From positions 20,708,001 through 20,772,000 of the forward strand of contig OZ231126.1 in NCBI GenBank assembly GCA_965153355.1: 64,000 nucleotides of DNA. Direction: 5' to 3'. Below the pieces are notes generated by a model. That model saw only the letters and a list, made by a program, of their open reading frames with translations. It searched no databases and had not been told where the DNA came from. The first letter of the stretch is position 1, and every line of letters starts with the position of its first letter. The translations under genes were made by a program, and so were the position numbers. Positions 35 to 33,360 of this stretch are shown here, piece by piece. The DNA comes from Flaccisagitta enflata. Taxonomy: Eukaryota.

Positions 35-180
35 TAACTATTACTGATATACTACTGATAACTATTACTGATAACTATTACTGATAACTATTATTGATAA
101 CTATTACTGATAACTATTACTGATAACTATTGCTGATAACTATTACTGGTCATAGATATATTCATAACTATTACTGATAA
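35..180. repeat. 13-bp minisatellite (ACTATTACTGATA)n
   Basis: Direct tandem copies are visible. Confidence 0.85.
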
Positions 181-256
181 AGAAAGAGACAACAGTAAAT
201 GGGCCAAAAAGAAAATATGATGCAAGACTAATGAGGATGAATTAAATCATCATTAC

Positions 257-568
257 CCATATTGCTCTGCAGGTGCATTAGGCAATAGAACGGGAAAATC
301 TGGGTCTGGTACTTTTGCTCAGATGCAGTTAAATCTGTTCTGGAAAAGTGTGGCTGCAATTCTTCTTTGTACTCCTCAAAAATTCTGTGTAGAGCTGCAT
401 TGACAATAGCCTGGTCTGTATTCATACTTTGCAAGCGACTAATGATATCTGCTATTACTTCAAGAATGCTTCTGCCACTAGCTAAACCACTGATGACAAT
501 TTGTTGAAGGGTTTCAATCAAAGTCTCTAGCTGAGAAGGAGCATCTTCTGCCGTTATTGCACGCATTC
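257..568 (-). CDS. Next exon of the transposase-like gene (second Asp and CxxH)
   Basis: Acceptor ttttcctccccAG|GA at 568 joins in frame (YTL-G-MRAI). Contains SMNTDQA and FYCLMH. Donor G|GTAATG at 257. The gene continues off the window. Confidence 0.7.
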
Positions 569-2348
569 CTGGGGAGGAAAAGTTGAAAGATATTTTTGAG
601 TGGCGGGCCTTGAGGGACCAATGACCTATGGTTCCATCTATGGAAATTTCTGTCTCTCTATTTTCCAATTTAACTTCCCTTTGCTAAAGCTATTTGAGGC
701 CTCAAATCAGCCTTTGCAGGCCACAAATCAACCCTCTCAGGCCTCAAATAAATCCTCCTAGGCCTAAAATCACCATACGTAAGCCTATATCAATCATTTC
801 AGACCTCAAATCAGCTATAAGGCCCTCAGCCCCAAATTGGCTCTCTCAGACCTTATAACAGCCCTCTTGTTGAGAAAAAAGTTTAAGTCAGTCTTTGACT
901 TTTTCACAAAGGGCCCCAAAGGGCTTTCACACATATGGGGAATTTTCTCCTCCTTCTCCTCCTCCTTCTTCTCATTCGCACCCCCCCCTCTAATCCCTGT
1001 CTTGAGGCCCAAATTCCTGTCTTGAAGCCCAAATCCTAGTCTTGAGACCCTAATCCCAGTCTTGAGGCTCAAGTTCTAGCCTCAAGGCCCAAAACTTATC
1101 CTGTAGGCCCAGATCCCTGCCTTGAGGCCCAAATCTCAGCCTCAAGGTCCAAATCCCAGCCAAGAGGCCCAGATCCAAACCTCAAAGCTAAGGTATAGAC
1201 ACATTTGTTTTTGAATGTGAGATTTTCACTGCCACCACCATTTTTTCACAGTGTAGATAAATCAATTGGACGCCTTCATTGAGCTACCCAGAACTTGTGG
1301 ATGGCTAGTCTGGTTGAAAATTTGCATGGAAATATCATAGGTTTGATGTTTTTAGTGTAAACAGTATCAATAATATAAATGGTCCAATATCAATATGTGG
1401 GTAAAAATACCTCTTTTTCTGGATATATTTCTCTTTTATCTCTAGATAAGCCTCACGAAAAATTCTTAATTTGCATGGAAAATGACTAATTCAAAAAACT
1501 AAAAACATGGCTTTGTCCAAAGACACATAAGAAGAGAGCCATGTTCTTGGAAATGCAAAAAGTTCAATTTGGAAGCAGATTAAGGATTTTTCTCTTAACA
1601 ATTTTTATCACTCATTTTTCAATAAATCAATTTCCTATTCCCTTTCTTTTTCCCAGTATGTTGTTCATAAAACGTATCCCTGCCTAAAATCTGGACTTTA
1701 AGAGTGCATTGATGTGATTGCTGCACATAATCAGCAGAGCAAGGCAATACTGTGAAGGAATATCCCTTCAGTAGTGCTAAAATATAACCGGTAAAAATAT
1801 CCCACAATTACGCCGAGCGTGTCGTATGGCCTCAAGGCACCTGGGCCTCCAGGCTAGGATTTAGGCCATGAGGCTAGAATTTGGGCCTCAAGACTGGGAT
1901 TGGGGTCTCGAGACTGGGATTAGAGAGGAAGGGACGGAGGAGAAGAAGGAGGAGAAAATTCACCATTTATGTGAAAGCATAGGTCATCGACGCTGCCCTG
2001 CTTCCCCTTTGACTTAAAGCACAACCTACTCAGGCAGGGCACGGGTAGCGCTGACCATCTAATGCTTTTGCAACTATTATTCTCTTACAGGAAAGTTGAG
2101 GGTCTCGATAGACCAAATAGGTCCCAGATCAGCCATCTCAAGCCTCATAAGAGCTCCCTCAAGCCTCAAATCAGTTTACTCAGACCTTAATCAACCCTCT
2201 CAGGGCTGTAACAGCCCTCAGGCCTCAAATCAGCCCCCCTATGCTTAAAATTTGTCTTCTCAGACCTCAAATCAGCCTTTTAAGATTGGAGATTGGCCCT
2301 CTTGAGCTTCAATAAAACTCTCGTATACCACAAATCAGCATAGATTAC

Positions 2349-13828: not shown

Positions 13829-14233
13829 TGTAAGGGCCTATATCTTGCGGGCCTTACCTTCTTCCACGTAGGCTTGAACCCGATCGCTTGATTGAGTTCC
13901 TTTGTAACTAATTAACTATCGAATGTTAATTGATATTTGTCTTCTTAGATTGCTTGGTTCTCTGCTATGATCTAGGCAAAGAAATACAAAGTGGAAGGTA
14001 GTTAACGCGGGACGAAAAAGGGCCTCTGTGCCAGATAGCCAGTTCTAGAGTCTTAGTTAAGTATCCAGGCAAATAAGCCACAGGGGGCAAACGTAAGGGC
14101 TACAAAACTAAATGGTACCAAAACATATCAGACACGAACAGTAAGGCATTTAAATTAAAGCAATGGCACATTGAAAATAGTTTTCATAGTCAGGATTCAC
14201 AGTTCTGCATATTGCACAAAATCGTCGCTCATA
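13829..14233 (-). repeat. 3' LTR
   Basis: Plus-strand TGTAAGGGCC...CGCTCATA. A purine-rich tract lies immediately upstream on the minus strand. Confidence 0.96.
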
Positions 14234-14248
14234 TGCTTCTACCCTTTA
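14234..14248 (-). promoter_or_regulatory. Polypurine tract
   Basis: Minus strand AAAGGGTAGAAGCA directly before the 3' LTR. Confidence 0.75.
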
Positions 14249-14292
14249 TAAATTTTTAGTCCCTAAAAACACGGAATCCTCTCCAACAGAAG

Positions 14293-15896: not shown

Positions 15897-15927
<31 letters not shown>

Positions 15928-18234
15928 GCTGTTGCTGCTGCTGTTGTTGTTGCTGTTGCTGCTGTTGTTGTTGCTGTTGTTGCTGTTGTTGTTGTTGTTG
16001 TTGTTGCTGTTGTTGCTGTTGCTGCTGCTGTTGTCGTTATTGTTGTTGTGTTCGGCGTTGTTATTGTTGTTGTTGTTTTGACGCCGATAGGTCACTGACC
16101 GACTTCCCGAATCGGAACGACGCGAACCCGAGGCAGAGCCATCAGGCCGAGGATGAGGAGGAGGCATCAACGGAGGAGGATACGTGCCTCTGTCTGCAGA
16201 AACATCATTATAGCGAAAGGCAGAGCGTGAACGGGAAGGGGGCTCATGAAAGGTAGAAGTAAGACGGGAAGAAATAGAATATTGTGAAGAGGAATTACCA
16301 AGCAACGACATTGTCAAAGGTAGAAGCGGTAAAGCAGCAGATTTTACTTTAGACTTATCAGTGGTGAGATGAGAGATAGGATAGGAAACAGGATTTTTGG
16401 AAGAAAGAAGCGATTTATCATTCCCATCAAGGTTTTTAGAATAGAAGGGGGCAACATCAATTTCCTTAACAACTTTCATCGATTCATATTCATCAATGCA
16501 ACCAATTTCACTTTCAGGTTCACTCTCACCCTCATTGACGTTTTTTCCATGAGAGCTATTGCGCAACGCCGAGCGTCTCTGATCCGGACTAGGAGTTGCA
16601 TCCATTCGATTGGCCGAAGATGACGACGAGGGGGAGGCGGAGGGGGACGAGGAAGAGGAATGATGACGCGACACGACCGGCATTTTGGCTTTAACAACCA
16701 AAGAATCTTCTTGAAAGGAAACTTTGCGGCATTCGTCGTCGCTACGATCGCTAAGCTTCCGTTTTGGCGCCGTTTTATCGGTAGACAACGCCGCAGGCGT
16801 TATCTTTTCAGCGGCAGGGATCGCGATAACGACACGACCGAGACAATCGCGATCAGGGGGGGAAGAAGATGAACCGGCGGATTGAGTAGAGGGAAGGGGA
16901 AGAAATTGAGAAGAGGCCGGCACGTAAGTTTCTTGCATGATGGTGCGTTTGCTATCCCATTGAGAGCGAAGAATGGCGCAAACGATTTGTTTTTCTCTTC
17001 TTCTAATCATCTCTTTCTCTTCAAAGGTGGCGACCTTGTCGCGGACGTCGTCCCATTTTGCGAATACGCCATCGACAGTCTCACGTTGTTTGGGGGTTAA
17101 TTCTGATGGGGGATCGCAGAAGGGGGAATTGCCGGCTCTCATGTCCATCAAATCACAAAGAGCTTTGACCATTTCGGTAGCAGAGTGGCTGTCAAAACTC
17201 AATTCCTCGTCGCAGACAAGCGCAAAGATCGAAGGGCAGACACTAATCATGTCTGCCAAGCCGGTGGCAGTGTCAAGTCCAATCAACGCATCGTGACCGC
17301 AGTAGCTCAATGCTACACCGGAGAGGCGGCCTTTAATTTCGCCGTAATCGGCCAAATGATTGCGAAGTTTGGGTCGTTTGTCGACGACGACATTTTCTTT
17401 GACGAATTCATACTGGAATTTGAGAGATGTGGCGCCGAGGATACCGCGATTTTTGCTTTCATGACAAGATGCCATAAAAACGCGGAGCGCTTCTGGGCCA
17501 CGGGCGAAGTTGGAGAGGAAGGCATATTGGAGGCCAGTGTCAATGAAACGAACATTTTCGATTTGGTTTTCCTCAAGTCCGAGGGACTTAAGGAGAGAAG
17601 GAAAATCGCCGGCAATCGCGTTTCCTGCGACGATAATGTTCCAATGGGTGATTACTTTTATGATGATTTCGTAATCACCTTCGTTTTGGAGACTGGTGGG
17701 GGGGCCTTTTGGGAGTCTTTTTAGTCCACTTCGCATTTGCAAGACGATGACTTTTTTGTCGTTATTGTGACGATACGCGAGCTGGATAGTCGCGCCTTTG
17801 TCTTCCTGATCGAGGCCGACGAAAATAGGTTTGGGGGACTTGTCGGCGATTTGGAGAAGGGGCGTGAGGTGTTGTTCGGCGGCATCATACGAACGGACAT
17901 GAACAATTTCTTTTGGGGTCAGTTTATCAAGAGTCACGCCGGGGGTCTTCAACTGACGTTTAAATTCGTAATCGAAATATTGACCTTCGTCGATTGTGGG
18001 GGAGGGCCTAGACTGACCGCGGTACGGGGGAACGTCCTCCATACAATATCGGATTTTGTCTTCCAAATGAGACTCGACCGGAATGACAAGCGCGGCACCA
18101 TCTTCGTAAGGATTCGGGACGGGCGTGGGCAGTTTAAATTGAGTCCCGTCAGGATAGAAATGACGTAGCCACGTCGCTTCTTCATCCCGCTTTTTCTGTT
18201 TGTCTGTTCTGTTTGTCTCTTTCTTTTTGGGCAT
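14293..18234 (-). CDS. ORF3, about 1313 aa: DEDDy 3'-5' exonuclease domain, S/N-rich linker, helical region, degenerate second exonuclease-like domain and RS tail
   Basis: Uninterrupted ORF between pol and the PPT, first ATG at 18234. ExoI FVGLDQE..ATIQLA, ExoII AGNAIAGDF, RFIDT, SLK, ExoIII YCGHDA. No signal peptide or transmembrane segment is evident, so it is not env. Confidence 0.88.
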
Positions 18235-19530
18235 TATCAACTTGGATAGAATCCAAATTGAGGACGCGGAAAAGAGTATATATGTAAGAATTGAACTCCT
18301 GACTAAGAGTTTGAAAGCAAAATGGGGTAAAGTTACGCGGGGAAAAGAGCGTGTTTCATTTCAAATAAACTTTTCATTTCAAATCATATCATTCATTTCA
18401 AAACAGAGCCACTTTAATTTATAACGAATCTTCATGGATATTCCGGAATTTCAGAGTGTTTCCATTAAATAACTCTATAAATGAAAAGGAGAAATTGGTA
18501 ATTAATTCATTTGAAGGCTTCTTTGCATCAAGAAATCGTCCCTTGTGATTCGACCTTCCACCAGAGTTGACAGCCTATTATAAAAGATGAGAAATGTTGT
18601 ACCATCTTGATTGATAAAAGGATTCGATATGTGCAAATACCAAATCATTTCCATATGATAAAATGAATCATCCAATCACTCTTCATTCACTGCGCTTCTT
18701 CATGTTCTTCTAACATACCCAATCCAAATTCCATATTTCCAAGTTGGCGTTTTGCAGTAAGGATTACCTCGTATCCAAGCGTGGTAACATCAATGTTCGG
18801 TTTTCCCGCTCAAGTTCAAGCAGGGGGTAAATCTTTTAAACGACTACCTAAAACATCTGGTAAATGGTAGAGATTAAGGTACCTGAAGGAAAAACCTACT
18901 AAAGGTTAGTAAGTTACCAGTAATTGAAATCTCGAGATGGCCAATTCTGGATGTAAAGTTGTTGCGCAACGTAACTTGAGATGGTGTTTGTGTCCAGGTT
19001 TTCTTCATATTGAATCTTGGAACTTGATGCCCATCGTGATGTTACTAACTAGCCCAGGAAAAGGAATAGGAAGGGCACAGGAACCCCACCATAGCTTGGG
19101 GATTCCGGAGGCCCAAACATGGCATGAACAGACAATGAACATATTTACAAAGTACCATGTGAACAATGATACAGATTGATGTCAGAGGGGGGGGGGCCAA
19201 TGTAAACGACTGAAGAACAGCCATTCAGACGCTGATATGGAACAATCGTGGGGGGGGGTAACAATCATGGGGGTAACGACAAATCCCGTGACAAAATCCA
19301 CGGGGGGGGGGGGGAAACATTTTAAATCCAAATGGCAGTGAAGAGGAACAACGAAGGGGGGGGGGGGGATATTGAGCATCGAGACAGAAGCCATAAATGC
19401 AATAACAGAGTAAGAGTAGCCAAGAAAGCAGGGGGGGGGTGTACTATGCTAGATGCAAATAATACGATTAACGAGCGAAAATTGATAGAAAAACCATAAC
19501 GTGAGAGTTAAAGCTATTCAGAAGAACAAC

Positions 19531-22500
19531 TTAATCCTTTGGAGTGCTTGCGGTTTGAGGTTGAGGTTGCGGATTGGGCGCCGAACTGCTTGGAGCGGCA
19601 GCCTGAGGATCTCCGCTTTGCCAGAAATAGCTGAAGGGGCGTAGTAGGAGTGAAGATTGATTTGCGCCTTGCGTGCTTTCCGGGGTGCTGATTGCGGATG
19701 ATGTGGACGGTTGTTGGGCGACCCTGATGTTTTGAATATCGTCTTTGTTTGGGACGAACGGCTCCTCTTCTTCCTCGAACACGTCCATGCTTGCGATTCG
19801 TTCCCGAATGAGATCTGCTGAACTGAAGGAAGCGAAAACGTCAGGAAGAGATTCGTCGCTTTCGGTCTCCTGCGATGTCGTGCGACGGTTCATCGATCTA
19901 ACGCGTTGCCCAACTTTCACGACAGCGTCTTTGGCTTCGGACCTTCGCTGCTCTTCCCGATTCTGTTGGAAACGTGTTCTCATGGAAGGAGCTGGCGGAG
20001 GACGGCTTACCGATTTTGGGCGAACCGCTTTTGGAGGTGGGTGGGACATCTCGGCAGAAGAAGAGGCTGGCGGCGTTTTGAGTGGGGCTGCATCTTCCTC
20101 CACTGGGATCAATTCCGGCGTTGTTCTTTTCCTCCTGTTGCGGGTTGTGGTTGCCGGCAAGTCGTCTGTTGAGGGTGGGACGCTGGCTTGATCGGCATCC
20201 GTACGCGAAGAAAGCGTTGGGCTGCTACCTGTTGGATCAATGGGCTCGGATTTAGGGCTTACCTTAATTAAGAGTTCGGATGGCGATGCCATCGAAGCAG
20301 CCGTAGGAGAGAGTGCCGCATAGAGTGGGGCAGCGGGGGCAGATTCGTCCGGAGACGAGTCTGGAGAAGTTTCATCAGGGGGAGCAAGTAGGGCGGAGTT
20401 GCCCGTTGCGGAAGCGAGCTGACCAGAGTGGCCCGATGTGGTGACTGGGAGCTGCGACGCTGGAGGGAGCGGCAACACTTGCGGAGGTTGTGTTGTTGGC
20501 GGAGATGGCGTCGTGGGTGGAGGCGGCGTTGCTGGTGGCGGAGGAGTCGGCGTTGCCGCAGGCAATACCGGGGCTGGCGTGAGGCTTTGGAGCGTTGCTG
20601 GGATAAGAGCCAGGGTGCGTCCTCTCGTTGGTCTGAGAATTGGTTTTAGGTTGGCCAGTGGGAGGTCAACAGTGGTGGTTGGAGGCGCATCTGGATCATC
20701 GGAATATGAGGGACCGATAGTCTTTCCCTGGTCTTCCGCTTCGGCCTTCTTAAGTTGCTCGTAGTTGCGATTGACCAGCTTCCCATCTGTCCTTTCGCAG
20801 ACATACGTGGTGCCAGGATTGCCTGAAGGGTCACGTCGACGTCTTTGGACCTTGAGGGGGCCGGACCATTTTGACTGAAGTTTGTGACGCGTGCCATCTG
20901 GCACACGTTCGTAGACGCGGTCGCCTTCCTCAAGCGGCGTATGTTTCACCTTCCGGTTGTACGCCTCTACATCTTTGACCCGTTGGGAATCAATGCGCTT
21001 TCGAGCTTCTTCGTGGATTTCCTCAGTTCGTTTTCGGACCTTTTCGATGTAGGCTTTGCTGTCTGGGTCCCTGACCGTAGAGGTCTCTGCGGGAACCGCA
21101 AAGGTAGGAAGCGGAGGGTCCCTTCCGTACATGAGGAAATAGGGCGTCATCTTGCTGTTGTATCGTGGGGTGTTGTTGTAGGACCATTCGACGTAAGGGA
21201 GATGCTCGACCCAGGAGTGTCCGTATTGAATGAGCCGCTTTCTCAAGTCTTTAATCAAGGTTCGATTGAACCTTTCAACGTGACCTTGCGACTGGGGTCG
21301 GTAGGGGATGCTGGTGCGTTTTTGTGCTCCCTTGACCTTGCACATATCCTTCAACAGGTCAGAGTCAAATTCGCCTCCATTGTCCGACGTGAGTAGGCGA
21401 GGTGGCCCGATGATGCATGTGAGGTCCTCAAAAGCGCGGCATACACCTCTGGTGTGTTTGTCCTTCAGTTTGAAGAGCTTCACGTATCCAGAGAACACGT
21501 CGATGAAGACCAAGACATGATGGAATCCAAGGGAAGCCGTAGGCAAGGAGATCAGATCGCAGACCACATGGTCCCAGACGTTTTCGGCTTTAACCGGGAT
21601 ACGGGGCGTGCGGTTTGCAGGAAGGGGTTCGCGCTCTTGGTCACAAACCTTGCAGTTCTTGATGAACCTCCTGATGTCCTTGCTGAGGGATGGCCACGTA
21701 GCGTACCTGTTCACCATGAGGAGCATTTTGTCATGAGATGGGTGTCCAGCCATGTATTCGCCGTGGAGATCTTCCAGGACCGATTTTGTCATGGATGGAG
21801 GGATGACGGCTTGGAGGATGTCAAGATGACTGCATTCGCTGTAGGCCTTCTTGTAAAGAATGCCATTTTGGAGAATGAACCACCTTCGATTGGAAGAGTA
21901 CCATCCATCTGGGAAGTCGTCTGGGATACGTTTGCGAGCTCTAAGGAAGCTTTTGACGGTAGAGATTGTTGCGTCGTCGTTCTGAGCTTTGCGTAACATA
22001 TCTTCATCTTCCTCGAACGCATTGAAGCGGACTGCTGAGAATTGGTCCTCGCACGTAATGGCAAGGAATGCAAACTCGTCACTGTCCTCGGCGATTTCGT
22101 CATCGTCATCGCCACGACGACTCATCGCGTCTGCGTCGGCATGAGACTTGCCTTCCTTGTAGATCAACTCAAAGTCGTAGGAGTTGAGTTCGATTGTCCA
22201 CCGGGTTCGTCTTCCAGTGGGGTCCTTCCTTGAGTCGATCTTCTTCCACGCTAATAGGGGGCGATGGTCGGTTATGGCAAGGAATGGGGCGTGGCGCAAG
22301 TAATGAGCATTCGCGCGGACCGCGCAAAGGAGAGCAAAGTACTCACGGTCGTAAGTTGACCAATTTTGCTGAGGACGGCTCAACTTCTTAGAACCATATG
22401 AGATGACTTTCTCTTTGCCGTCGACCTTTTGGGTGAGTACATATCCGATGGCGGTCAGGGATGCGTCGGATTTAATGATGAAAGGCTTGGCGAAGTCTGG

Positions 22501-24696
22501 GTAGCACATAACGTTGTTGGAAGTCAGGTAGTCCCTCAAGGTTTCGAAGGCGTGTTGGTGAATGCTGGTCCACTTCCATTCCACATCCTCCTTGGTGAGC
22601 TCTGTGAGGGGTTGGGCGATGTCACTATAGCCTTTGATGAAGTGGCGATAGTAGCCGGTAAGACCAAGGAAAGTCCTTAGCCTCTTGATGTTTTCGGGCG
22701 TCTTCCATGATTTGATCTTGTCCATGTTGGCCGGATCAGGACCAATCCCGTACTTGCTAAGTTTGTGCCCTAGGCACACAACAGAGTCTTGAGCGATGTG
22801 GCATTTGGACGGGTTGAGCTTCAACCCGGCCTTTTCCAGCGCCGTGAGGACTAGGTCCAAGTGGTGAAGATGATCTTCCATGTTGCTGTCGGCGACCAAA
22901 ATATCGTCGAGGTAGGAGATCACATGTTGAGAAGGGAGTCCCCGCAGCACGAGTTGCATGAGCGCCGTTAGGTAGCTTGGAGAGTTTTTTGCGCCCATAG
23001 GGGCCACTAAATATTCCAAGTGCATCGTCTCCGTCGAAAACGCGAAATATTTGCAGTCCTCGGGAGCAATCGGGATCTGCCAAAAGCCTTTGGTCAGATC
23101 GAGAGAGCTGAAGATGCGGGGATCCTTGAGACGTTGGATGCTGTCCTCAATTCGGGGAAGTGGGTAGACGACTTTATCGCATCTCTCGTTCACCTTGCGG
23201 AAGTCTGTTAGGAAACGGAAGCCTCCAAACTTCTTTTTGGCGAGGAGGATAGGCGCAGAGTAGGGGCTTGTAGACGGACGGACTAGTCCATCTGCCATCA
23301 TTTCAAACGCCTGCTTGTCGATAGCTTCCCGAGCTTCTGGGGTGGTTCGGTAAGGGGAGACAGAAATAGGAGGGCCAGGTGGATTCTTCATGTGTGCGCG
23401 GTATTGGATCACAGATGTCTTTCCGTAATCTCGGTCGTGTTGGCTGAAGGCACCCTCATGTTTCACTTCCAAGAGATTCTTGAGTTGGTCTTTGTAAGGT
23501 TTTGCTTCCTCCGAGATGGTTGAGTAATCGATGCTGAGGGGTTTAGCACCAGGCGGTATTCTCTTTCTTCTTGCCCGTGGTGGAGGGGTCCAACCACTTC
23601 GTGGAGGGGGGGTGTCTTGTGGCTGTGGGGGATCGAGAATGTCCACTTGGTGGGCTGCGAGCGTTTGGGAATTGGGAGGTCTGTCGCAGACAATTTCCTC
23701 CAGTTCTTCATCATCACTATCGGCTTCAGAGGAGTTGCCAGATTCGTAAGCCGAATCATCGCTAACATAATCATTGACCATCTCTGTCTTGTAGCAATAT
23801 TTCTCAAGCTCAAAGGGGTCAAAGAATTCTGCATAACCCAAGACGCGACCGGCTTCCAATTTGACATCGGAGTCTGTGCAGTTCATGAGTTCAGTGAGGA
23901 ACATGCAGTCCCTGACATCGGAAATCGCTCTGCATGTGGCAGCTTGTTCGCCTTGGTCTACAAAGGGCTCCGTGGCCACCATTGTTGATGCTGCTTTGAT
24001 GTGGTCTTTGTCTGCCATGAGTTCGACCATCTTGTGCATTTTGCTGTTGGCTGGGATAGTGACGTCTTCGTGAATTCGGTAGAAGCAGCCGGAGAGAACT
24101 GTACTGTCTTTGACCAGGGGAGTGGGGGCCCAGTCTCTGAATTCCAACAGACCCTCAACAGTGTTGAGAGTGGCTTTGAATTTTGAGAAAAAGTCCCAAC
24201 CAAGGATGACGGGCTGAATGAGACCTCTGACAACACGACAATTGATTGCCATGTAATTGTTGTTAATTCGGAATGGGACATTGACGATACCGATGGTTAA
24301 GACTTTTGACCCGTTGATTGCTGTGCCGCGAGTTGTCAGATTTCTGTAGGGGCGTTTTCTCAGGGCAGGGCTATCTCTGAAGAAATCTTCCGAGATAGTG
24401 CAACGGCTCGAGCCCGTGTCGCCAAGGGCAAGGACCTTTTGGTACTTGCCATCAAGCCCTGTCTTTATGGAGATCGAGAATTCGGCCTTCCACTGGGGTC
24501 TGTAGTCGCCTGGAGGGGGATCTGGGGATTCGGGGTAAGTGTGGGATTCTGGAGTATCCGGTATCAAGTGGGGATCAGGGGGTTTTGGAAAATCTGCTGA
24601 GTTGAGGGAGGGGGCGAGTTTTGCAGTTCCGATCTCTGTGCGCCCCTTGACAGAGTCGGGAGCTAGTTTTCCGGATTCCGACCTTGGCGGGCCAGT
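19531..24696 (-). CDS. pol: Pol polyprotein (aspartic protease, RT, RNase H, integrase, long P/S/T-rich tail)
   Basis: Protease LGDTGS. RT SLDLTKGFWQI and YLDDILV. RNase H SDAS...RE...TDH...DAMSR. Integrase HGEYMAGH...CKVC, CDL, SDNGGEF, GHVERFN and a GPY/F-like KWSGPL. No stops. Confidence 0.97.
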   Translation of the reverse strand, partial: TGPPRSESGKLAPDSVKGRTEIGTAKLAPSLNSADFPKPPDPHLIPDTPESHTYPESPDPPPGDYRPQWKAEFSISIKTGLDGKYQKVLALGDTGSSRCTISEDFFRDSPALRKRPYRNLTTRGTAINGSKVLTIGIVNVPFRINNNYMAINCRVVRGLIQPVILGWDFFSKFKATLNTVEGLLEFRDWAPTPLVKDSTVLSGCFYRIHEDVTIPANSKMHKMVELMADKDHIKAASTMVATEPFVDQGEQAATCRAISDVRDCMFLTELMNCTDSDVKLEAGRVLGYAEFFDPFELEKYCYKTEMVNDYVSDDSAYESGNSSEADSDDEELEEIVCDRPPNSQTLAAHQVDILDPPQPQDTPPPRSGWTPPPRARRKRIPPGAKPLSIDYSTISEEAKPYKDQLKNLLEVKHEGAFSQHDRDYGKTSVIQYRAHMKNPPGPPISVSPYRTTPEAREAIDKQAFEMMADGLVRPSTSPYSAPILLAKKKFGGFRFLTDFRKVNERCDKVVYPLPRIEDSIQRLKDPRIFSSLDLTKGFWQIPIAPEDCKYFAFSTETMHLEYLVAPMGAKNSPSYLTALMQLVLRGLPSQHVISYLDDILVADSNMEDHLHHLDLVLTALEKAGLKLNPSKCHIAQDSVVCLGHKLSKYGIGPDPANMDKIKSWKTPENIKRLRTFLGLTGYYRHFIKGYSDIAQPLTELTKEDVEWKWTSIHQHAFETLRDYLTSNNVMCYPDFAKPFIIKSDASLTAIGYVLTQKVDGKEKVISYGSKKLSRPQQNWSTYDREYFALLCAVRANAHYLRHAPFLAITDHRPLLAWKKIDSRKDPTGRRTRWTIELNSYDFELIYKEGKSHADADAMSRRGDDDDEIAEDSDEFAFLAITCEDQFSAVRFNAFEEDEDMLRKAQNDDATISTVKSFLRARKRIPDDFPDGWYSSNRRWFILQNGILYKKAYSECSHLDILQAVIPPSMTKSVLEDLHGEYMAGHPSHDKMLLMVNRYATWPSLSKDIRRFIKNCKVCDQEREPLPANRTPRIPVKAENVWDHVVCDLISLPTASLGFHHVLVFIDVFSGYVKLFKLKDKHTRGVCRAFEDLTCIIGPPRLLTSDNGGEFDSDLLKDMCKVKGAQKRTSIPYRPQSQGHVERFNRTLIKDLRKRLIQYGHSWVEHLPYVEWSYNNTPRYNSKMTPYFLMYGRDPPLPTFAVPAETSTVRDPDSKAYIEKVRKRTEEIHEEARKRIDSQRVKDVEAYNRKVKHTPLEEGDRVYERVPDGTRHKLQSKWSGPLKVQRRRRDPSGNPGTTYVCERTDGKLVNRNYEQLKKAEAEDQGKTIGPSYSDDPDAPPTTTVDLPLANLKPILRPTRGRTLALIPATLQSLTPAPVLPAATPTPPPPATPPPPTTPSPPTTQPPQVLPLPPASQLPVTTSGHSGQLASATGNSALLAPPDETSPDSSPDESAPAAPLYAALSPTAASMASPSELLIKVSPKSEPIDPTGSSPTLSSRTDADQASVPPSTDDLPATTTRNRRKRTTPELIPVEEDAAPLKTPPASSSAEMSHPPPKAVRPKSVSRPPPAPSMRTRFQQNREEQRRSEAKDAVVKVGQRVRSMNRRTTSQETESDESLPDVFASFSSADLIRERIASMDVFEEEEEPFVPNKDDIQNIRVAQQPSTSSAISTPESTQGANQSSLLLRPFSYFWQSGDPQAAAPSSSAPNPQPQPQTASTPKD
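24611..24672 (-). promoter_or_regulatory. -1 programmed ribosomal frameshift signal (slippery heptamer plus H-type pseudoknot)
   Basis: G GAA AAC (24672-24666) precedes the gag TAG. After a 6-nt spacer, stem 1 is CCGACTCTGT/ACAGAGATCGG. Loop GGGGCG pairs with downstream CGCCCC (24616-24611). The pol frame is open from 24696 and is -1 relative to gag. Confidence 0.85.
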
Positions 24697-26120
24697 CTAG
24701 ACTCCTTCTTTTGGAGAAGTGAGAGCAGGCGGGCATCCAGGGTGGCATCATCCTCGCTGTCGTTGCTGTATTCATCGGCAGTTTGGATGGCATTGTAATT
24801 GCGATCACCGCGATTTCTATCGCGACCTTGGTTGCGATTGCGATCGTAGTTGCGACCACCGTAATTGCGGTCATCGCTTGGAGTCCTTGGGGTTGGGGAC
24901 CTTCCTCTGCCGGAGTAGCGATCATCGCGTTGGCGACCATTGCTGTAGTCCCTACGGTTGTCCCTGCCGCTCCGATTTTGCTCGTCTCGGTCACGACGGG
25001 AATTGCGATCACGGTTGGGATCTTGGTCACGGCGTGGGGCTTCGCGACGATAATCTCTGTCACGGCTGAAGCTCGGCTCTCGACGAGACTCTTGATCACG
25101 GCGGTAATCTCTGTCGCGACCATAGCTTTGGTCACGGCGGTTGCCGTTGCGATCCCGGTTGTATTGGCGGTCTCTGCTGGGGCTTCCTGAGCTATCGCGG
25201 TAGCGGTCCCTTGAGTACCGGTTATAACCATCACCGGTTGAGCGGCCACGGTCGTCGGAAGATTTTCCTTGCATGGACATATTTCTCACTTCTGTACCAA
25301 GTTGTGCAATAGCGAGTTCGAGGCCGCCGATGCGGTCGTCGGCCATGGCTAGGCCAGTGAAGGCAACTTGTTTGGGCTCCTTTATTGGTTCCTTGTCTCT
25401 CTGGGTCATTTTCACTCTTGAGGCAAGTTCCATGGCGTTTTCAATGGTGCGATCTTGCTTCGTCAGGCTCAAGTCAATGTAGTCCTGATAGGGGGTTTCA
25501 GGGAGAGACTCCCTAAACCTGAAGAAGTACGCCCATTTCTTGCCGTTGTCGTCGAGCTCTTTTTCGTAGTTGTCGACCGCACGTTTGACACGAGTTGCCA
25601 AGGCCTGGAAACTTTCCTTTCCATCCCAGACAATTTGGGTCTTCATGGCCTTCCATTTGTAGACCTCGTTGGGGTCAACAAGGCGGTCCTTGAGCTGAGC
25701 TTTGGTTTGGTCGTAAGTGAGAGTCGATGGGATTTGTTTGTAGACAGCTCGAGCTTCTGAGTCAAGCTTGATGGGGAGCCAGCTTTTGCATAGTTGCCAC
25801 TTCCTATCATCAGAGGAAGGGTTCATTGCCAGTTTGACAGCGTTTTCGAAGATCTCGAACCACTCGTCTAAGTCATCTACTCCTGAGCGGAAAGAGTCCA
25901 CTGGGATGGAGCTTGCTCTCTCGTTCGTTACCGCCATGGTCGCGGCAAGGGCAGCGGCAGTTGCGGCGTTGGCAGCTGCAGCGGCGTCTCCCTGGTTGGC
26001 GTTTTGGTGGTTGTTGGCGTTGTCGTTGCCAACCATGGGGATTGGATTGTGGGGAGGTTGAGCACCCAGCTGGATCGCGTTTGGGACGGAGGGAATTGTT
26101 GGGGGAAGAGGCGGGGGCAT
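24663..26120 (-). CDS. gag: Gag, 485 aa (capsid-like core, R/D/S-rich basic C-terminus, no CCHC knuckle)
   Basis: Long ORF immediately upstream of pol. Helical capsid-like region includes an MHR-like ESFQALATRVKRAV. It ends at the slippery site. Confidence 0.9.
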   Translation of the reverse strand: MPPPLPPTIPSVPNAIQLGAQPPHNPIPMVGNDNANNHQNANQGDAAAAANAATAAALAATMAVTNERASSIPVDSFRSGVDDLDEWFEIFENAVKLAMNPSSDDRKWQLCKSWLPIKLDSEARAVYKQIPSTLTYDQTKAQLKDRLVDPNEVYKWKAMKTQIVWDGKESFQALATRVKRAVDNYEKELDDNGKKWAYFFRFRESLPETPYQDYIDLSLTKQDRTIENAMELASRVKMTQRDKEPIKEPKQVAFTGLAMADDRIGGLELAIAQLGTEVRNMSMQGKSSDDRGRSTGDGYNRYSRDRYRDSSGSPSRDRQYNRDRNGNRRDQSYGRDRDYRRDQESRREPSFSRDRDYRREAPRRDQDPNRDRNSRRDRDEQNRSGRDNRRDYSNGRQRDDRYSGRGRSPTPRTPSDDRNYGGRNYDRNRNQGRDRNRGDRNYNAIQTADEYSNDSEDDATLDARLLSLLQKKESRLARQGRNPEN

Positions 26121-26225
26121 TGGACAGAGTGCAACTCTATCTTAGTTGGATAATGGAGGTGTTGATGACAAGGTGTTTAAGGCGAAGGAGGAGAGATGGA
26201 CAGCGCTGGGTATGATTATGGGTTG

Positions 26226-26516
26226 TTATTGTGGCGCGGCAAACCCAGCAAGGAGCAAGGACCTCAGCGGAAGAAAGTCAGTTTCGATGATGTAATCGTT
26301 TTCGCTAAGCAAAGTGGAGTTGGAGTCGAATGCGTATTTGAGAGCGGCCAACTCGCGCTTGAGATTAGACCAAGTGCTTTGGGCTGGGGTGAGTAACTTG
26401 TGGCCGCTGTTGACGATTTGTTCCTCCCCGTTGACGATTCTCAAGATGTTGAATCCTATGGCAGCGGGTGACGAGTAGAGGCGAACGATGTATTCGGGGG
26501 GGTTAGCTTCAGCCAT
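26226..26516 (-). CDS. Accessory ORF-B, 96 aa: stand-alone RNase H-like protein, probably catalytically dead
   Basis: From ATG 26516, YIVRLYSSPAAIGFNILRIVNGEEQIVNSGHKLLTPAQSTWSNLKRELAALKYAF...IETDFLPL aligns without gaps to Pol RNase H FIIKSDASLTAIGYVLTQKVDGKEKVISYGSKKLSRPQQNWSTYDREYFALLCAV...AITDHRPL. Confidence 0.85.
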   Translation of the reverse strand: MAEANPPEYIVRLYSSPAAIGFNILRIVNGEEQIVNSGHKLLTPAQSTWSNLKRELAALKYAFDSNSTLLSENDYIIETDFLPLRSLLLAGFAAPQ

Positions 26517-26629
26517 TTTGAGGCGAGTTATTAGAAATGAAGGGGAGTTGGATTCAATGACAATAAAGGACGAGGAGGCCACAATAGAAAATTACAGCAA
26601 AACAAGGCGAAGAGGAACTGTACACCGAT

Positions 26630-27310
26630 TTACACTTGTTGCGATGTTGGCAACGCGAAGGCGAAGATCCTGTTGAAGACTGCCTGGGCGGTTCCCTCCA
26701 CAAAGATGCGAAACTGCGACCTTGCCGGTGCTTCAAACACGTAGTCCCAGGCTTGGAGAACCAACTCCTCGGAGTCGAACAATGGGGTGCTTGTCAGCTT
26801 CTGGACAAAGGCAAGCCACAGCTGATCCGCGTTACCGTTTGGGTTGTCTTCTTTCACGACCAGGATGGCGCAAAAGATGAGTCGGCTGGTGCGTTCGACG
26901 TGGTCACGGCGTCTTGAGGAGTATCTTCCGTGATGGCTGGGGGCCCACAGGGAATTGGGAGTGGCACTGGGACTAGGCGAAGCCTGATCCCTGGGAAGCC
27001 AGTTCCTGTATTCGGCTCTTGGCCTTCTTGGAGGTGAAGGGGAGGCGAGAGAGACAGCGTTTCGGAACCGGTTAGTCCACTCGTCAAAGTCGTCACGCGA
27101 GAGGGGTCTCGAATTGTTGAGAAGACTGGCGACCAGAGGGCTGTGTTCTGCTCCCTGATGGTGGGCCTCAAAACGATATTGCGGGTGTGCAGCTGGGGAT
27201 CTTCGGAATCTGCGACTTGGGCTTGCTGAAGCACGGTTTGGAGCGGAGTTGGATTCAGGAGATGAGGATCTTCGTTGGGATCTTCGGTGTCTTCGATAAG
27301 GAGGGTCCAT
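26630..27310 (-). CDS. Accessory ORF-A, 226 aa: R/S/P-rich N-terminus, Gag-capsid-like segment and helical C-terminus
   Basis: ATG-initiated ORF inside the element. DDFDEWTNRFRNAVSLA...YRNWLP aligns with the element's own Gag DDLDEWFEIFENAVKLA...CKSWLP. Confidence 0.75.
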   Translation of the reverse strand: MDPPYRRHRRSQRRSSSPESNSAPNRASASPSRRFRRSPAAHPQYRFEAHHQGAEHSPLVASLLNNSRPLSRDDFDEWTNRFRNAVSLASPSPPRRPRAEYRNWLPRDQASPSPSATPNSLWAPSHHGRYSSRRRDHVERTSRLIFCAILVVKEDNPNGNADQLWLAFVQKLTSTPLFDSEELVLQAWDYVFEAPARSQFRIFVEGTAQAVFNRIFAFALPTSQQV

Positions 27311-28088
27311 CTAGTCAGATAGACACCAGCTAGGAGGCTAATGTTTCTTATCGTAAAGTTGAGTTGAGCGGTCTCTGTGGCTTAAGTGCCGGGATAAATG
27401 ATACGGATACGGATAAATGATACGATTAAGGGTGATTGGTAAAGGGGCTCTCACTTTGGCGAATAGCATCGGTTATTGAAGAGATAGATTTGCGTAGGAA
27501 CTCCAACCTATGGCAAAACCCAGCGCACGCCTTGAACACGGGTCCGTGAGCAGGTCCAAGGAATGACCACTACATGAGAAGTGCGTCCAGGCTTTGTTCT
27601 CTACTGGAAGTAAAAACGCGTACCTGATCAGGATTTTAGCCAATCAAACTCCGTCAACATTCACAGACTTGTTGAGCGGGGCTTGCGCGAACTGCCACGA
27701 AGAGGGGTTGCCTCATACGCTTGTTAAGGATCCCAAGCGGAAGTCGAAACCGAGCCGGCGCTTGCGGAAGGACTGTTGGACGAATCTAACCAGTATACCC
27801 AGCTTAAAAACGGACTGCGAAAGATCCACAATCCCTATACCACACACTAAGCGCTGAACTCGTCCAAGACAGCAGTTTCGGTTCCACCAGAGACCAGGAA
27901 ATTAGTGAAAGGGGGGAAGAAATCCGTCGTCTTGGCAGCCAGATCTGCAACCAGGATGGCCTATTCAAGGCAGAAAGGCTGTTGCATGAGAAATTACAAT
28001 TCCAGAGGAGTTCCTCAGAAACAAGAGAAGCAAAGGATATGAGAGCCACCTGAGAGAACTGGTAGATCTCTGGAACGGTTCTAAAAAT

Positions 28089-28100
28089 GCCGATGCACCA
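28089..28100 (-). promoter_or_regulatory. Primer-binding site, tRNA-Gly(GCC)
   Basis: Minus strand TGGTGCATCGGC, 2 nt after the 5' LTR. It is complementary to the ...GCCGATGCA-CCA 3' end of invertebrate tRNA-Gly(GCC), recalled from memory. Confidence 0.85.
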
Positions 28101-28102
28101 GT

Positions 28103-28507
28103 TGTAAGAGCCTATATCTTGCGGGCCTTACCTTCTTCCACGTAGGCTTGAACCCGATCGCTTGATTGAGTTCCTTTGTAACTAATTAACTATCGAATGT
28201 TAATTGATATTTGTCTTCTTAGATTGCTTGGTTCTCTGCTATGATCTAGGCAAAGAAATACAAAGTGGAAGGTAGTTAACGCGGGACGAAAAAGGGCCTC
28301 TGTGCCAGATAGCCAGTTCTAGAGTCTTAGTTAAGTATCCAGGCAAATAAGCCACAGGGGGCAAACGTAAGGGCTACAAAACTAAATGGTACCAAAACAT
28401 ATCAGACACGAACAGTAAGGCATTTAAATTAAAGCAATGGCACATTGAAAATAGTTTTCATAGTCAGGATTCACAGTTCTGCATATTGCACAAAATCGTC
28501 GCTCATA
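28103..28507 (-). repeat. 5' LTR
   Basis: Plus-strand TGTAAGAGCC...CGCTCATA. Matches 13829-14233 except one A/G at position 7. PBS abuts it. Confidence 0.96.
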
Positions 28508-30790
28508 GTGGTCTCATTGATTTATGTGCTCATGGTGGATTCCCATTGACAAAATTTCTCTTAACTCTGGTGCCATTCTAAATTCCTTTTCAGAAGATTT
28601 CCTTGTTGAGGGTTTCCGAGCGGATCCTGCCCTTTGACGTCTGTGTTTGAGGTCATGCATGACCCAGTGGAAGATACTTTTTGCATCAAGTCTGCCTCAA
28701 ATGGTGGGGGTCCATGGAGTTCTGCTAGTGGTAATGGGAATCTTCGGTCCTCTCGGCCAAGTGTCCCCTTACACGCTGTTGGGAAAGAGGATGAATCAAG
28801 TGTTGTGCGTCCCCAAGTTTGGCTGGGACCCGCCGTTGCCACCTGAAATTGATACATGGGTGGACAAGAGATCCCAAGCTATGTAGCAATTTCAGTTTTT
28901 GCCTATTGTTTATTTATTTTGGTTTGACCTACCATAGGTGAGCCATTAACCTATTCACACTTACTGATGCCTCGATCATCAGCTACAGTGCTGTATCTCT
29001 CTTTGTCATTGAGGTCAGAAGCCTACTCATCTGGGCTGCAGCCAGGTCACGTGTCTCGCCAAACAAGGAGGTCAATGTTACATCAATTAGTCCATTCCTT
29101 GATTGGAATTGCAAGCCACTATCACTGGCGTGGAACTGTCAATGCAGATCAAGGAAACATTGATGTCCAGAGCTCCCAGGAATACTTCTTCACGGATTCC
29201 ACAACAGTCCACTTTTGGATCCAAGGCAAGGATGGAAAGCATCCAGTGTTTGTTGCCATCCATCTCAACCAAATTCAGCTGACACATCCAGATGCTCCAC
29301 TGATGCAGTGGCAGTGGGTACCCAGCAGATATTGTTTCCCAAGATGCTATGCCTGATAACTCCAAGGCTGGAAGTTGTTCCATGAAGGTCCGCACTTCAT
29401 GGCCTGCCTTAAAGATGAGTGGACTTGGCTCTTGGCGCCAATGAAGCCACGGCAGGGACATCCAACGCTGCAGATGCTCATGTTCAGGAAAGTAGCCTTG
29501 CAGTTCTCATTGATCACGCACATTGTCAGTTCCATTCTCAAGTTTGCAGGCTGCTCCCTCAATTTTGTCCCTCCCTAGCGTGTCAGAGATGCAAGATGCT
29601 TAAGATCTCCTCATTTGAGACTACCAATGTCACTTCTAAGCAAAGATCATGGTCTACGCGAAAGGGACAGTGGAGAGAAGGATCAAGCAAGTCCTCAACA
29701 GGTCAGATTTGTCTTTCCGCCAGTTATGTCCATTTGTAGATGACAAGGAATTTCTTCTTGTTGGTGGAAGGCTGGATCTTTGCTGAGAGGCATTCGAAGT
29801 ATCTTGTTCATTGATTTTGCCTTATGATGATCCTTACATTAATCATCTTATCAAATTGAATCAAAAGGAGTATGCCGCAGCCTCTATGCTACACCATCAG
29901 TTTTGGATTATCAAGGGTCGCCAAGCCATCAAGAAGGTTCTTTGGCAATGCCTTTCATGTCATCCTCACCACCATTAGCTGGAGCAACAACAGATTGCGC
30001 CTTTCTCGTCTTATTGCCTTAATGTTGCGCCACCCTTCAGGGACACCAGAATCAACCTATTTGGACCTGTTCCAATTAAGTCTGGATGTCATGGGAGGAA
30101 CGTGTGGGTGGTGTTTTTCTGTTGCATGCAAGTCAGAGCAGACTACCTTGAAGTACCTAAAACATTCATCGAAACTCTACACCGTTTCCACTTTTTTACC
30201 CATGTGTCTCCACAGTAATCGAGGAATAAATTTTGCTGGTGCCAACAATATGCTGCAGTTAATGCTTGCCCAGTGGGAGAATGCCCCTGAGTCTGTTCTA
30301 TTTCCTCGGCCAGCGGGCATCAAGTGGTTCTTTATCCCACCTTATGTGCCGCATCAAGGAGGAAGCTAGGAGTGGTGAAGGAGACCATTGGGGGTATCTC
30401 CACCTCCGGTCTACCTTCTGGTACAAACAGTTCTACATTGTCTTTCAATTTGTCGCAAAAATCGTCAGCAGTCGCTTATTGATGCATTTCTCCTCTGACC
30501 CTCAAGATCACCATCCACTGATGCCAGTGCATTTCCTCAACAATGATGTCTCATCTAATTGTTTTGGCTGACACATTCCCATTTGTGCCACTCTCTGGAA
30601 CGGAGCTGCGTCGTTCAAAGGACGTTTTTTGTCCAATCCTCAATTCATTCTGGAACCAGTGGACCACAGAGTATGTCGCAAATCTCCAGATGAGGTCCAA
30701 GTGGATCTACTGCCATCGCAACACTGCCAAAGGTGATATTGTCCTCCATGTTAAAATGTTTTTGACCAGGGTATCATACTGGTAATTGGA
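28508..30790 (+). pseudogene. Decayed BEL/Pao pol (RT end, RNase H, integrase, C-terminal domain)
   Basis: GLIDLCAHGGFPLTKF, YFFTDSTTVHFWI...FVAIHLNQIQ...WQWVP, HSNRGINFAGA, GIKWFFIPPYVPHQGG and FWNQWTTEYVANLQMRSKW are all BEL-typical motifs. Many stops and frameshifts. Confidence 0.88.
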
Positions 30791-32080: not shown

Positions 32081-33360
32081 AAAAATCTTGAAAGAGAATG
32101 GGTCCGCGACTGGGGTCAATCAGCGTTGTCAAACGGTGTTGAAATACGGCGTTGTAAAACGGCGTTGTAATACGGCGTTGTAATACGGCGTTGTAATACA
32201 GCGTTGTAAAACAGCGTTGTAAAACGGTGTTGTAAAACAGCATTATAAGGCGTTTGTAAAACGGCGTTTGTAAACCGGTCGTAGCAAGTTTTAATCAAAT
32301 TGGTGGAAAACTACCGAAATAATGCAACTTTTTTAATTTTAAGAAGGTAGGGTGGTTGAGTAATAAACTGGTTTTGCCGGTTAGCATGCTAAAATCGTGT
32401 TAAATCACTTACAAACATCGAGTTATTTCATTTTGAATCTATATACCAAGTTTTGACCAAATTGGTTGAAAATGATGAAGTTTTGCACAAATATCACTTT
32501 TAGGGTGGTAGGCTGGCCGGCTGGTAGGCCAGTTAGCATGACAAAATCTTTATAAATCAAATTCATATGTTGAGTCCTTCCATTTAGGGACTACATACCA
32601 AGTTTCAACCAAATTGGTTGAAAAATGCCGAAGTTATGCACGTTTTTCACTTTTAGGCTGGAAGGCTAGTTGGGTGGTAGGCTGGTTTGGCTGGTTAGCA
32701 TGCTAAAATCTTTACAATTCAAATACATATATTGAGTCTTTCCATTTTGAGACTTCATACCAAGTTTCAACCAAATTGGTTGAAAAATACCCAAGTTATG
32801 CACATTTTTCACTTTTAGGCTGGTAGGCTAATTGGGTGGTAGGCTGGTTTGGCTGGTTAGCATGCTAAAATCTTTACAATTCAAATACATATGTTGAGTC
32901 CTTCCATTTAAAGACTACATACCAAGTTTTAACAAAATCAGTTGAGAAATAAAAAAGTTATGCACGTTTTTCACTTTTAGGCTGGTAGGCTGGTTGGGTG
33001 GTAGGCCGATATGGCCAGTTAAAAAGCTAAAATCTGTACAATTCAAATACATATGTTGAGTCCTTCCATTTAGAGACTACATACCAAGTTTCAACCAAAT
33101 TGGTTGAAAAGTACGGAAGTTATGCACGTTTTTCACTTTTAGGCTGGTAGGCTGGTTGGGCCGGTTGGGTGGGTCGGATTATAATATACGCATAGGATGT
33201 AAAGCGGCTTACTCTGGTTCAACTTCCCTCCAAATATGAAGCAAATTGGTCAAGGCATTCAAAAGTTAGCCCATTTTTAAAAGTGTGGACAACAACGACA
33301 ACACCCACCCGCCTCGAATTATAGTCCGCGTCGGAATGGTATTCCGTCGCGGACAAAAAA
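32081..33360 (+). mobile_element. Helentron/DINE-1-like non-autonomous element with internal 14-bp and about 140-bp tandem repeats
   Basis: 5' GTCCGCGAC is inverted to 3' GTCGCGGAC. 3' hairpin GTCCGCGTCGGAAT-GGT-ATTCCGTCGCGGAC. Internal tandem units. Confidence 0.6.

Follow-up and report, generated by a model that had tools for sequence, protein, structure and literature searches.

Why should a small gene upstream of gag in a long terminal repeat (LTR) retrotransposon carry a piece that resembles the beginning of the retrotransposon's own capsid? The question is raised by a stretch of 64,000 nucleotides (nt) from Flaccisagitta enflata (GenBank assembly GCA_965153355.1, contig OZ231126.1, positions 20,708,001 to 20,772,000 of the forward strand), which we call the window and from whose first letter all positions are counted. 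It contains a Ty3/gypsy-type (Metaviridae) LTR retrotransposon of 14,679 bp, located at 13829–28507 on the minus strand, in which the open reading frames (ORFs) between the LTRs follow the order ORF-A, ORF-B, Gag, the Pol frame and ORF3. An earlier reading, made from the letters and their translations (the sequence-only reading), had proposed that ORF-A contains a segment paralogous to the N-terminus of the Gag capsid, set between an arm rich in arginine, serine and proline and an unrelated helical C-terminus, and that ORF-A may be a dedicated capsid-interacting regulator comparable to p22 of the yeast element Ty1. Sequence comparison confirms that the similarity between the ORF-A segment and the Gag N-terminus is real.

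Aligned by BLASTP, ORF-A and Gag share 17 of 35 residues (30.4 bits, E-value of 4e-5). The Smith-Waterman score of the pair (74) was equalled in 3/2000 shuffles of ORF-A and in 3/2000 shuffles of Gag; simple shuffles of this kind are a hard control, because both proteins are rich in arginine, serine and aspartate. For a profile-based comparison we used 28 relatives of Gag and left out the Gag of the window itself. The resulting profile matches residues 72–106 of ORF-A in one register (profile positions 32–67) at 19.3 bits, a score reached by none of 5000 shuffles of the whole ORF-A (maximum 10.2 bits) and by none of 5000 shuffles restricted to the segment (maximum 13.5 bits). When the same profile was run against the six-frame peptides of the window with a length of at least 30 amino acids, Gag and ORF-A were the only matches at an E-value of 0.01 or lower, with 3.3e-5 for ORF-A. 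Residues 71–106 of ORF-A also match the Gag N-terminus in 8 of the 10 sister loci retrieved from metagenomes (E-values of 1e-6 to 2e-4), the two misses being L004 and L008. ORF-A and its Gag-like segment lie where the sequence-only reading had placed them (Table 1), and the paralogous piece described there exceeds the shuffled controls. As to the accompanying claim of visible nucleotide similarity, in codon register the segment is identical at 60 of 102 positions, but the DNA similarity is not significant alone, as its local score was reached by 35/500 codon shuffles.

According to the structural model of Gag, the segment shared with ORF-A spans the first two helices of the capsid N-lobe, of which ORF-A has a copy of helix 1 and of the end of helix 2. 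This model, which was built on an alignment, is confident at residues 70–245 (predicted local distance difference test, pLDDT, > 90 in most blocks), with the two helices at the positions given in Table 1. Both Gag columns that are invariant within the segment are kept in ORF-A (A98 as A89 and W114 as W104), and so is the equivalent of the nearly invariant D82. Compared with 29 Gags over the 35 positions, ORF-A is identical at 8–18 of them; the Gag of its own element, with 17, ranks third, and there is therefore no sign of a recent conversion from the element's own gag. Strongly conserved Gag sequence flanks the segment and was not seen in ORF-A, so that retention has been selective for this piece. 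Judged by these comparisons, the segment is an old paralogue that matches Gag at clade-conserved positions, and not a recent copy.

The ATG of ORF-A follows directly on a stop codon. The arm that makes up residues 1–71 is basic (isoelectric point 11.9), disordered and rich in arginine, serine and proline, as had been proposed, and the description of the C-terminus as helical and unrelated holds as well: AlphaFold models residues 127–217 as a five-helix bundle (pLDDT ~90), and this part matched neither Gag nor Pol nor ORF3. In addition, the model contains a helix of moderate confidence at residues 72–89. An exhaustive profile search with ORF-A returned 13 proteins at an E-value of 0.001 or lower, 9 of which scored at 1e-10 or lower. 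They comprise a twin of 98% identity (P0001, representing a cluster of 31), a frameshifted variant (P0002) and eleven relatives at 22–49% identity. The part common to the relatives corresponds to about the last 95 residues of ORF-A and includes the invariant residues P157, W165, F192 and F200, which form the core of the conserved C-terminal five-helix domain that defines the family and is present in ORF-A. The N-terminal parts within the family are of variable length, largely disordered and mostly basic. The relatives are all unnamed and were drawn from ENA assemblies. Among the close variants of ORF-A, 14 of 15 keep the full frame (the copy in the window included). By this conservation, ORF-A is a real gene and a member of an unnamed conserved family. 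The sequence-only reading had staked its case on an ORF conserved in sister elements, and such conservation was found, both in the 13 matches with their distant relatives and in a relative located upstream of gag in a sister locus (L003).

Four of 11 proteins of the family (P0005, P0006, P0007 and P0009) contain in the disordered arm the motif PPSY, within a conserved PPSYEEA, and P0048 has PSAP in its arm; these resemble late-domain or WW-binding motifs. None of PPxY, P[ST]AP and YPxL occurs in the ORF-A or the Gag of the window. No Pfam family was found for ORF-A, Gag or ORF3. With the ORF-A model as query, no usable match was obtained from the PDB by Foldseek (best E-value 1.2), by VIA-align (best Z-score 5.0, 5ue0_A) or from BFVD (best E-value 0.29), and no capsid-like chain was among the matches listed in each of these searches. 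A search of the ESM Atlas with residues 125–226 gave no usable match either, and a PDB sequence search with the family profile gave 0 matches. In a comparison of the ORF-A family with the Gag family, hhalign assigned a probability of 0.5%. Relatives were likewise absent from a JGI metagenome scan with a narrower alignment of the ORF-A family, from IMG/VR scans with Gag and with ORF-A (0 in each), and from a tblastn search of the phage collection with ORF-A.

The sister locus L003 encodes, on the strand of gag (846..2186), an ORF-A relative of 210 amino acids (69..701) that precedes gag by 145 nt. A profile of the five-helix domain scores 33.6 bits on this ORF and 129 bits on ORF-A. The only other sister locus with enough upstream sequence, L009, has an unrelated ORF of 299 amino acids (564–1463) before gag, and positions 1–120 of L004 contain the tail of an upstream ORF of the same type. 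The clade therefore carries different upstream genes, of which ORF-A is one. The L009-type ORF, which takes the place of ORF-A in another sub-lineage, is also poor in ATG, with 2 between its start and that of gag.

The second upstream cistron, ORF-B, presents a parallel case. It matches the Pfam family RT_RNaseH (E-value 5.8e-7) and is 33% identical to residues 591–666 of the element's own Pol. Twenty-four relatives, at 71–97% identity, all have a length of 92–97 amino acids. Where Pol has the first catalytic aspartate within its motif SDAS, the ORF-B sequences read [YH]SS (25/25), and internal methionines are found at 5 of 2259 residues. On sequence grounds, ORF-B is a conserved and catalytically dead fragment of RNase H. 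In none of the 10 sister loci was it found before gag. In this lineage, then, both cistrons before gag contain a diverged piece of one of the element's own proteins, Gag in ORF-A and Pol in ORF-B.

The region that holds both cistrons is depleted in ATG. Between the start codons of ORF-A and Gag (1185 nt), a single ATG is present in any frame, namely the start of ORF-B at 26516, compared with an expectation of 10.9 ± 2.6; one or fewer was seen in 0/2000 dinucleotide shuffles. The same strand of this stretch contains 21 CAT, and the rest of the element has 15–25 ATG per kb. Neither ORF-A nor ORF-B contains an internal ATG in any frame, as is the case for the long ORFs ahead of the main ORF in rice tungro bacilliform virus and badnaviruses. 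The depletion extends to relatives: ten full-length proteins of the ORF-A family have 3 internal methionines in 2824 residues (1.28% in 41 Gag relatives), and the 5790 nt upstream of gag in the ten sister loci contain 28 ATG versus 101 CAT. One ATG where 10.9 are expected suggests that ORF-A, ORF-B and Gag are translated by leaky scanning, and by analogy with known leaders the depletion points to such translation of three cistrons. ORF-A starts in a moderate context (T at -3, G at +4; the rules of the host may differ) and Gag in a weak one (C at -3, C at +4). In the open-access literature we found no report of an ATG-free three-cistron 5' region in an LTR retrotransposon, which is not proof that none exists.

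The explanation that we favour, tentatively and with clear reservations, combines these two lines of sequence evidence. ORF-A, ORF-B and Gag would be translated from one genomic RNA, with ribosomes scanning past the upstream starts as in rice tungro bacilliform virus (RTBV) and badnaviruses. The Gag-like helix would have been retained for a role resembling that of Gag helix 1, either packing on the capsid N-lobe or binding the same partner, so that ORF-A could associate through it with Gag or with the assembling particle and carry its C-terminal domain along. We lean towards ORF-A as a dose-dependent modulator, set by the ratio of translation, which would either help or restrain assembly.

A number of observations weigh against this explanation. 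Within the ORF-A family, by sequence, the Gag-like piece is significant only in the present lineage. Among 11 proteins (10 family proteins and the L003 ORF) that were compared with a profile of the Gag N-terminus, the twin P0001 alone gave a clear match (24.4 bits, 0/2000 shuffles); P0010 was borderline (5.0 bits, 3/2000 shuffles), P0013 was weak (25/2000), and the other eight showed no Gag-like signal with this profile. The core function of the family therefore has no visible need for Gag mimicry. A profile of the region preceding the five-helix domain likewise matched the Gag N-terminus in hhalign when ORF-A was included (E-value 0.0028) and found nothing in Gag without it (E-value 0.2). In the ORF-A model, the helix of the segment reaches a pLDDT of only ~65, and the counterpart of Gag helix 2, rich in proline, is predicted as coil. 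ORF-B starts in an optimal context (A at -3, G at +4), which should halt most ribosomes, and the start contexts as a set fit leaky scanning only in part. Finally, the analogy with p22 is loose, as ORF-A contains a diverged copy of 35 amino acids (49% identity) fused to an unrelated conserved domain.

Possible, although we doubt it, is that the Gag-like segment is a mark left by the birth of the gene. A partial duplication or recombination of gag-pol would have left ORF-A with a Gag helix and ORF-B with a piece of RNase H; ORF-A would then work through its C-terminal domain and its basic arm (for example on RNA, in nuclear export or through host adaptors), with the Gag-like helix as a mere linker that has yet to decay. 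The Gag piece and the RNase H piece of Pol do occur in the upstream ORFs in the order that they have in gag-pol, and it is the C-terminal domain, rather than the Gag-like piece, that the family conserves. The occurrence of PPSY in 4/11 proteins and of PSAP in one hints at host-adaptor functions unrelated to capsid mimicry, and a precedent is described for the Cer1 protein CERV, which shares the N-terminal sequence of Gag and serves RNA export (PMC10309623). Free decay predicts something other than what is observed, however: the segment keeps exactly those positions that are conserved in the Gag proteins of the clade, while its surroundings are unrecognisable, and it is about as near to many Gags as those Gags are to one another in helix 1. 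Moreover, none of 10 sister loci has ORF-B before gag, and in L003 the ORF-A relative occurs without ORF-B, so that the two pieces need not stem from one event.

An independent origin of the resemblance appears unlikely. It would require that the family inherited from its ancestor an amphipathic acidic helix, F-[DE]-[DE]-x-x-x-x-[FL], and that the likeness of this helix to Gag helix 1 is convergent in this lineage. An alignment of the 85 residues that precede the C-terminal domain does place a helix-like motif of this form in the same block in 10/11 proteins (for instance RFDDLSLRI, QFDEQLDEF, RFEEERARL and QFEELEARL). The match between ORF-A and Gag nevertheless extends past the helix, through A-S/T, Y and WLP with the invariant tryptophan, over 36 profile positions in one register, and shuffles with the composition of the segment stay well below the observed score (at most 13.5 bits versus 19.3). 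A Gag-like helix ancestral to the whole ORF-A family was considered as a separate candidate and lacks statistical support, given the hhalign result obtained without ORF-A.

We regard it as very improbable that ORF-A and ORF-B, open by chance, are what is left of an older or nested element decaying in the leader. Fragments of retroelement genes are indeed found in both ORFs, yet the ORF-A family is conserved, with core residues invariant at identities as low as 22%, the length of ORF-B is held within 92–97 amino acids in 24 relatives, ATG is depleted, and L003 has the same gene order. A leader made up of dead fragments of another element was rejected on the evidence of conservation and ATG content. 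Scarcely credible is a chance similarity of two low-complexity proteins rich in arginine, serine and aspartate: the Smith-Waterman shuffles reach p ~0.001–0.002 only and the DNA similarity is not significant, but 0/5000 shuffles match the profile score, 8/10 independent Gag loci are matched, and ORF-A is the sole non-Gag match in the six frames of the window.

Returning to the favoured explanation, in which ORF-A would act on Gag or its partner and be translated together with it, we compared the element with known systems. The copy-number-control factor of Ty1 (p22/p18) is a truncated gag product made from a subgenomic RNA, with a sequence identical to part of Gag, and ORF-A resembles p22 as an element-encoded, Gag-derived sequence that could act on its own capsid (PMC4551931). 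Unlike p22, ORF-A is a separate upstream gene, located 510 nt before gag, and not a truncated gag frame; furthermore, Ty1 is a copia-type element and the present one is of the gypsy type. Of the interpretation offered by the sequence-only reading, the paralogous piece in a real accessory gene is upheld; the role of capsid-interacting regulator is a candidate one, weakened by the restriction of the Gag-like piece to this lineage and by the loose likeness to p22, since ORF-A is a gene of its own. A further comparison is with CERV of the Caenorhabditis elegans element Cer1, a gypsy-type accessory protein that also consists of Gag N-terminal sequence and an unrelated, lineage-specific remainder, and whose role is the nuclear export of genomic RNA (PMC10309623). 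Unlike ORF-A, CERV shares gag exons by splicing, so that the two have the same sequence and no paralogue is involved (PMC10309623).

In the Drosophila MDG1 group (412, mdg1, Stalker and Blood), the short upstream frames encode a nuclear protein of ~110 amino acids with a helix-turn-helix (sORF1) and a membrane fusogen-like protein of ~70 amino acids with a hydrophobic helix and a polybasic part (sORF2) (bioRxiv 10.1101/2025.03.14.642691). ORF-A shares with these their upstream position and, presumably, their presence on the unspliced RNA. With 226 amino acids it falls outside the size range of the MDG1 frames (60–130 amino acids), into which ORF-B (96 amino acids) would fit; in the accessible part of that preprint no piece derived from Gag or RNase H is reported for them, the comparison being by description only (bioRxiv 10.1101/2025.03.14.642691). 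For plant elements of the Tat/Ogre type, an extra ORF upstream of gag is likewise described in a Ty3/gypsy element; unlike ORF-A, for which no Pfam family was found, these extra ORFs carry a plant mobile domain or transposase-28 (PMC4408406, PMC7264820). A parallel for the arrangement of the 5' region comes from RTBV and badnaviruses, in which ORFs I and II lack internal AUG codons and leaky scanning brings ribosomes to ORF III (PMC5902531). As in these viruses, two AUG-free ORFs precede the capsid-polymerase ORF (over ~900 nt there, 1185 nt here), and a leader with short upstream ORFs precedes the AUG-free ORFs (PMC5902531). RTBV and the badnaviruses are plant pararetroviruses, however, and their upstream starts are weak or moderate, in contrast to the start of ORF-B, whose optimal context is read from the sequence (PMC5902531).

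Table 1. Features of the retrotransposon in the window.
Feature	Coordinates	Strand	Description
5' LTR	28103..28507	-	Direct repeat; GTGG on both outer flanks
Leader, LTR to ORF-A	27311..28102	-	Putative primer-binding site adjoining the LTR; 5 short upstream ATGs
ATG-poor stretch	26123..27307	-	Between the start codons of ORF-A and Gag, 1185 nt
ORF-A, 226 amino acids	26630..27310	-	Arm 1–71, Gag-like 72–106, linker, predicted five-helix domain 127–217
Gag-like segment, ORF-A residues 73–106	26993..27094	-	Aligned to Gag residues 82–116
ORF-B, 96 amino acids	26226..26516	-	Stand-alone N-terminal fragment of reverse transcriptase-type RNase H
Gag, 485 amino acids	24663..26120	-	Modelled two-lobed capsid region at residues 70–245; long disordered tail rich in arginine, aspartate and serine
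Gag counterpart, residues 82–116	25773..25877	-	Modelled capsid N-lobe helix 1 (84–99) and helix 2 (104–118)
Pol frame	19531..24696	-	Weak protease match, reverse transcriptase, RNase H, integrase, long P/S/T-rich tail
ORF3, 1313 amino acids	14293..18234	-	No Pfam match at an E-value of 0.1 or lower
3' LTR	13829..14233	-	Direct repeat with 28103–28507

The limits of the element are defined by a direct repeat of 405 bp, the two copies of which match at 404/405 positions and are bordered by GTGG on each outer side. The LTR boundary is ambiguous by 2 bp, as TG..CA ends with a six-base duplication of which 5/6 agree fit equally well. The insertion is very young. Besides the LTR pair and the target-site duplication, the order of reverse transcriptase, RNase H and integrase in Pol, as found by Pfam, is that of the Metaviridae. 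Within the leader, ATGs are located at 27987, 27716, 27660, 27575 and 27469 and open ORFs of 1–43 codons (6.3 ATG per kb). At 27382–27445 of the leader, 72 nt upstream of the ORF-A start, 62 nt are swapped for 26 other letters in other copies (contigs of the runs X1, X2 and X6). The element is covered, with many variants, by contigs from two DNA runs of one organism and from a marine metagenome. Run X1 contributes 383 pieces, of which 127 have at least 99% identity, 147 have 95–99% and 109 have 90–95%; from this spread, the element is one copy of a diverged multi-copy family.

The capsid region of Gag has 45 relatives in the protein collection. Foldseek with the Gag model returned mostly retroviral, Arc, PNMA2, dArc1 and copia capsids, with a best E-value of 0.14 only. 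Gag has a single cysteine and therefore no CCHC zinc knuckle. Its C-terminal 200 amino acids (24663–25300), rich in arginine, aspartate, serine and tyrosine, are disordered in the model, apart from a terminal helix predicted with confidence at 458–479. The Pol frame overlaps the end of Gag by 34 nt (24663–24696, minus strand) in the -1 frame and requires a -1 shift. By eye, the overlap contains no canonical slippery heptamer, GGAAAAC just before the gag stop being the sole candidate. Pfam places RVT_1 at residues 339–498 of Pol, RT_RNaseH at 586–692 (with RT_RNaseH_2 also found), Integrase_H2C2 at 817–872 and rve at 895–986; the match to Asp_protease_2 is weak (E-value 0.048). Past the integrase core, a tail of ~550 amino acids rich in proline, serine and threonine (window 19531–21200, minus strand) is probably disordered. 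ORF3 contains a long run of asparagine and serine that derives from tandem repeats of 9–15 nt at 15801–16104, and its sequence matches in the PDB are confined to the low-complexity asparagine run. Just outside the element, at 30543–30785 on the plus strand, a DUF5641 match in a broken frame (E-value 6.6e-9) is presumably the remnant of the integrase C-terminus of another retroelement. Tandem arrays lie at 32097–33150, first of units of 13 nt (10 copies of a 61-nt register) and then of 162-nt repeats.

A further interpretation, which we consider improbable on the sequence evidence, takes both upstream cistrons together as mimics of the element's own proteins. ORF-A (capsid helix 1) and ORF-B (dead RNase H) would be made first and act as decoys that titrate Gag-Gag interactions and those of reverse transcriptase and RNase H, and the ATG-free leader would set the ratio of decoy to Gag and, with it, the element's control of its own copy number. 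If this were true, a principle like that of Ty1 p22 would have arisen independently in a gypsy-type element, by duplication of gene pieces and not by an internal start. Apart from this, the ORF-A family adds to what is known of accessory genes in LTR retrotransposons, which are few and mostly of unknown function: the family is unnamed, none of the known folds clearly matches its confidently modelled domain, and it is tied to a single gypsy-type clade from marine samples. The 5' region, with three cistrons and without internal ATG, would be of a type known from plant pararetroviruses. The paralogue of a capsid helix inside an accessory protein offers a direct, testable handle on whether capsid self-regulation occurs beyond yeast Ty1.

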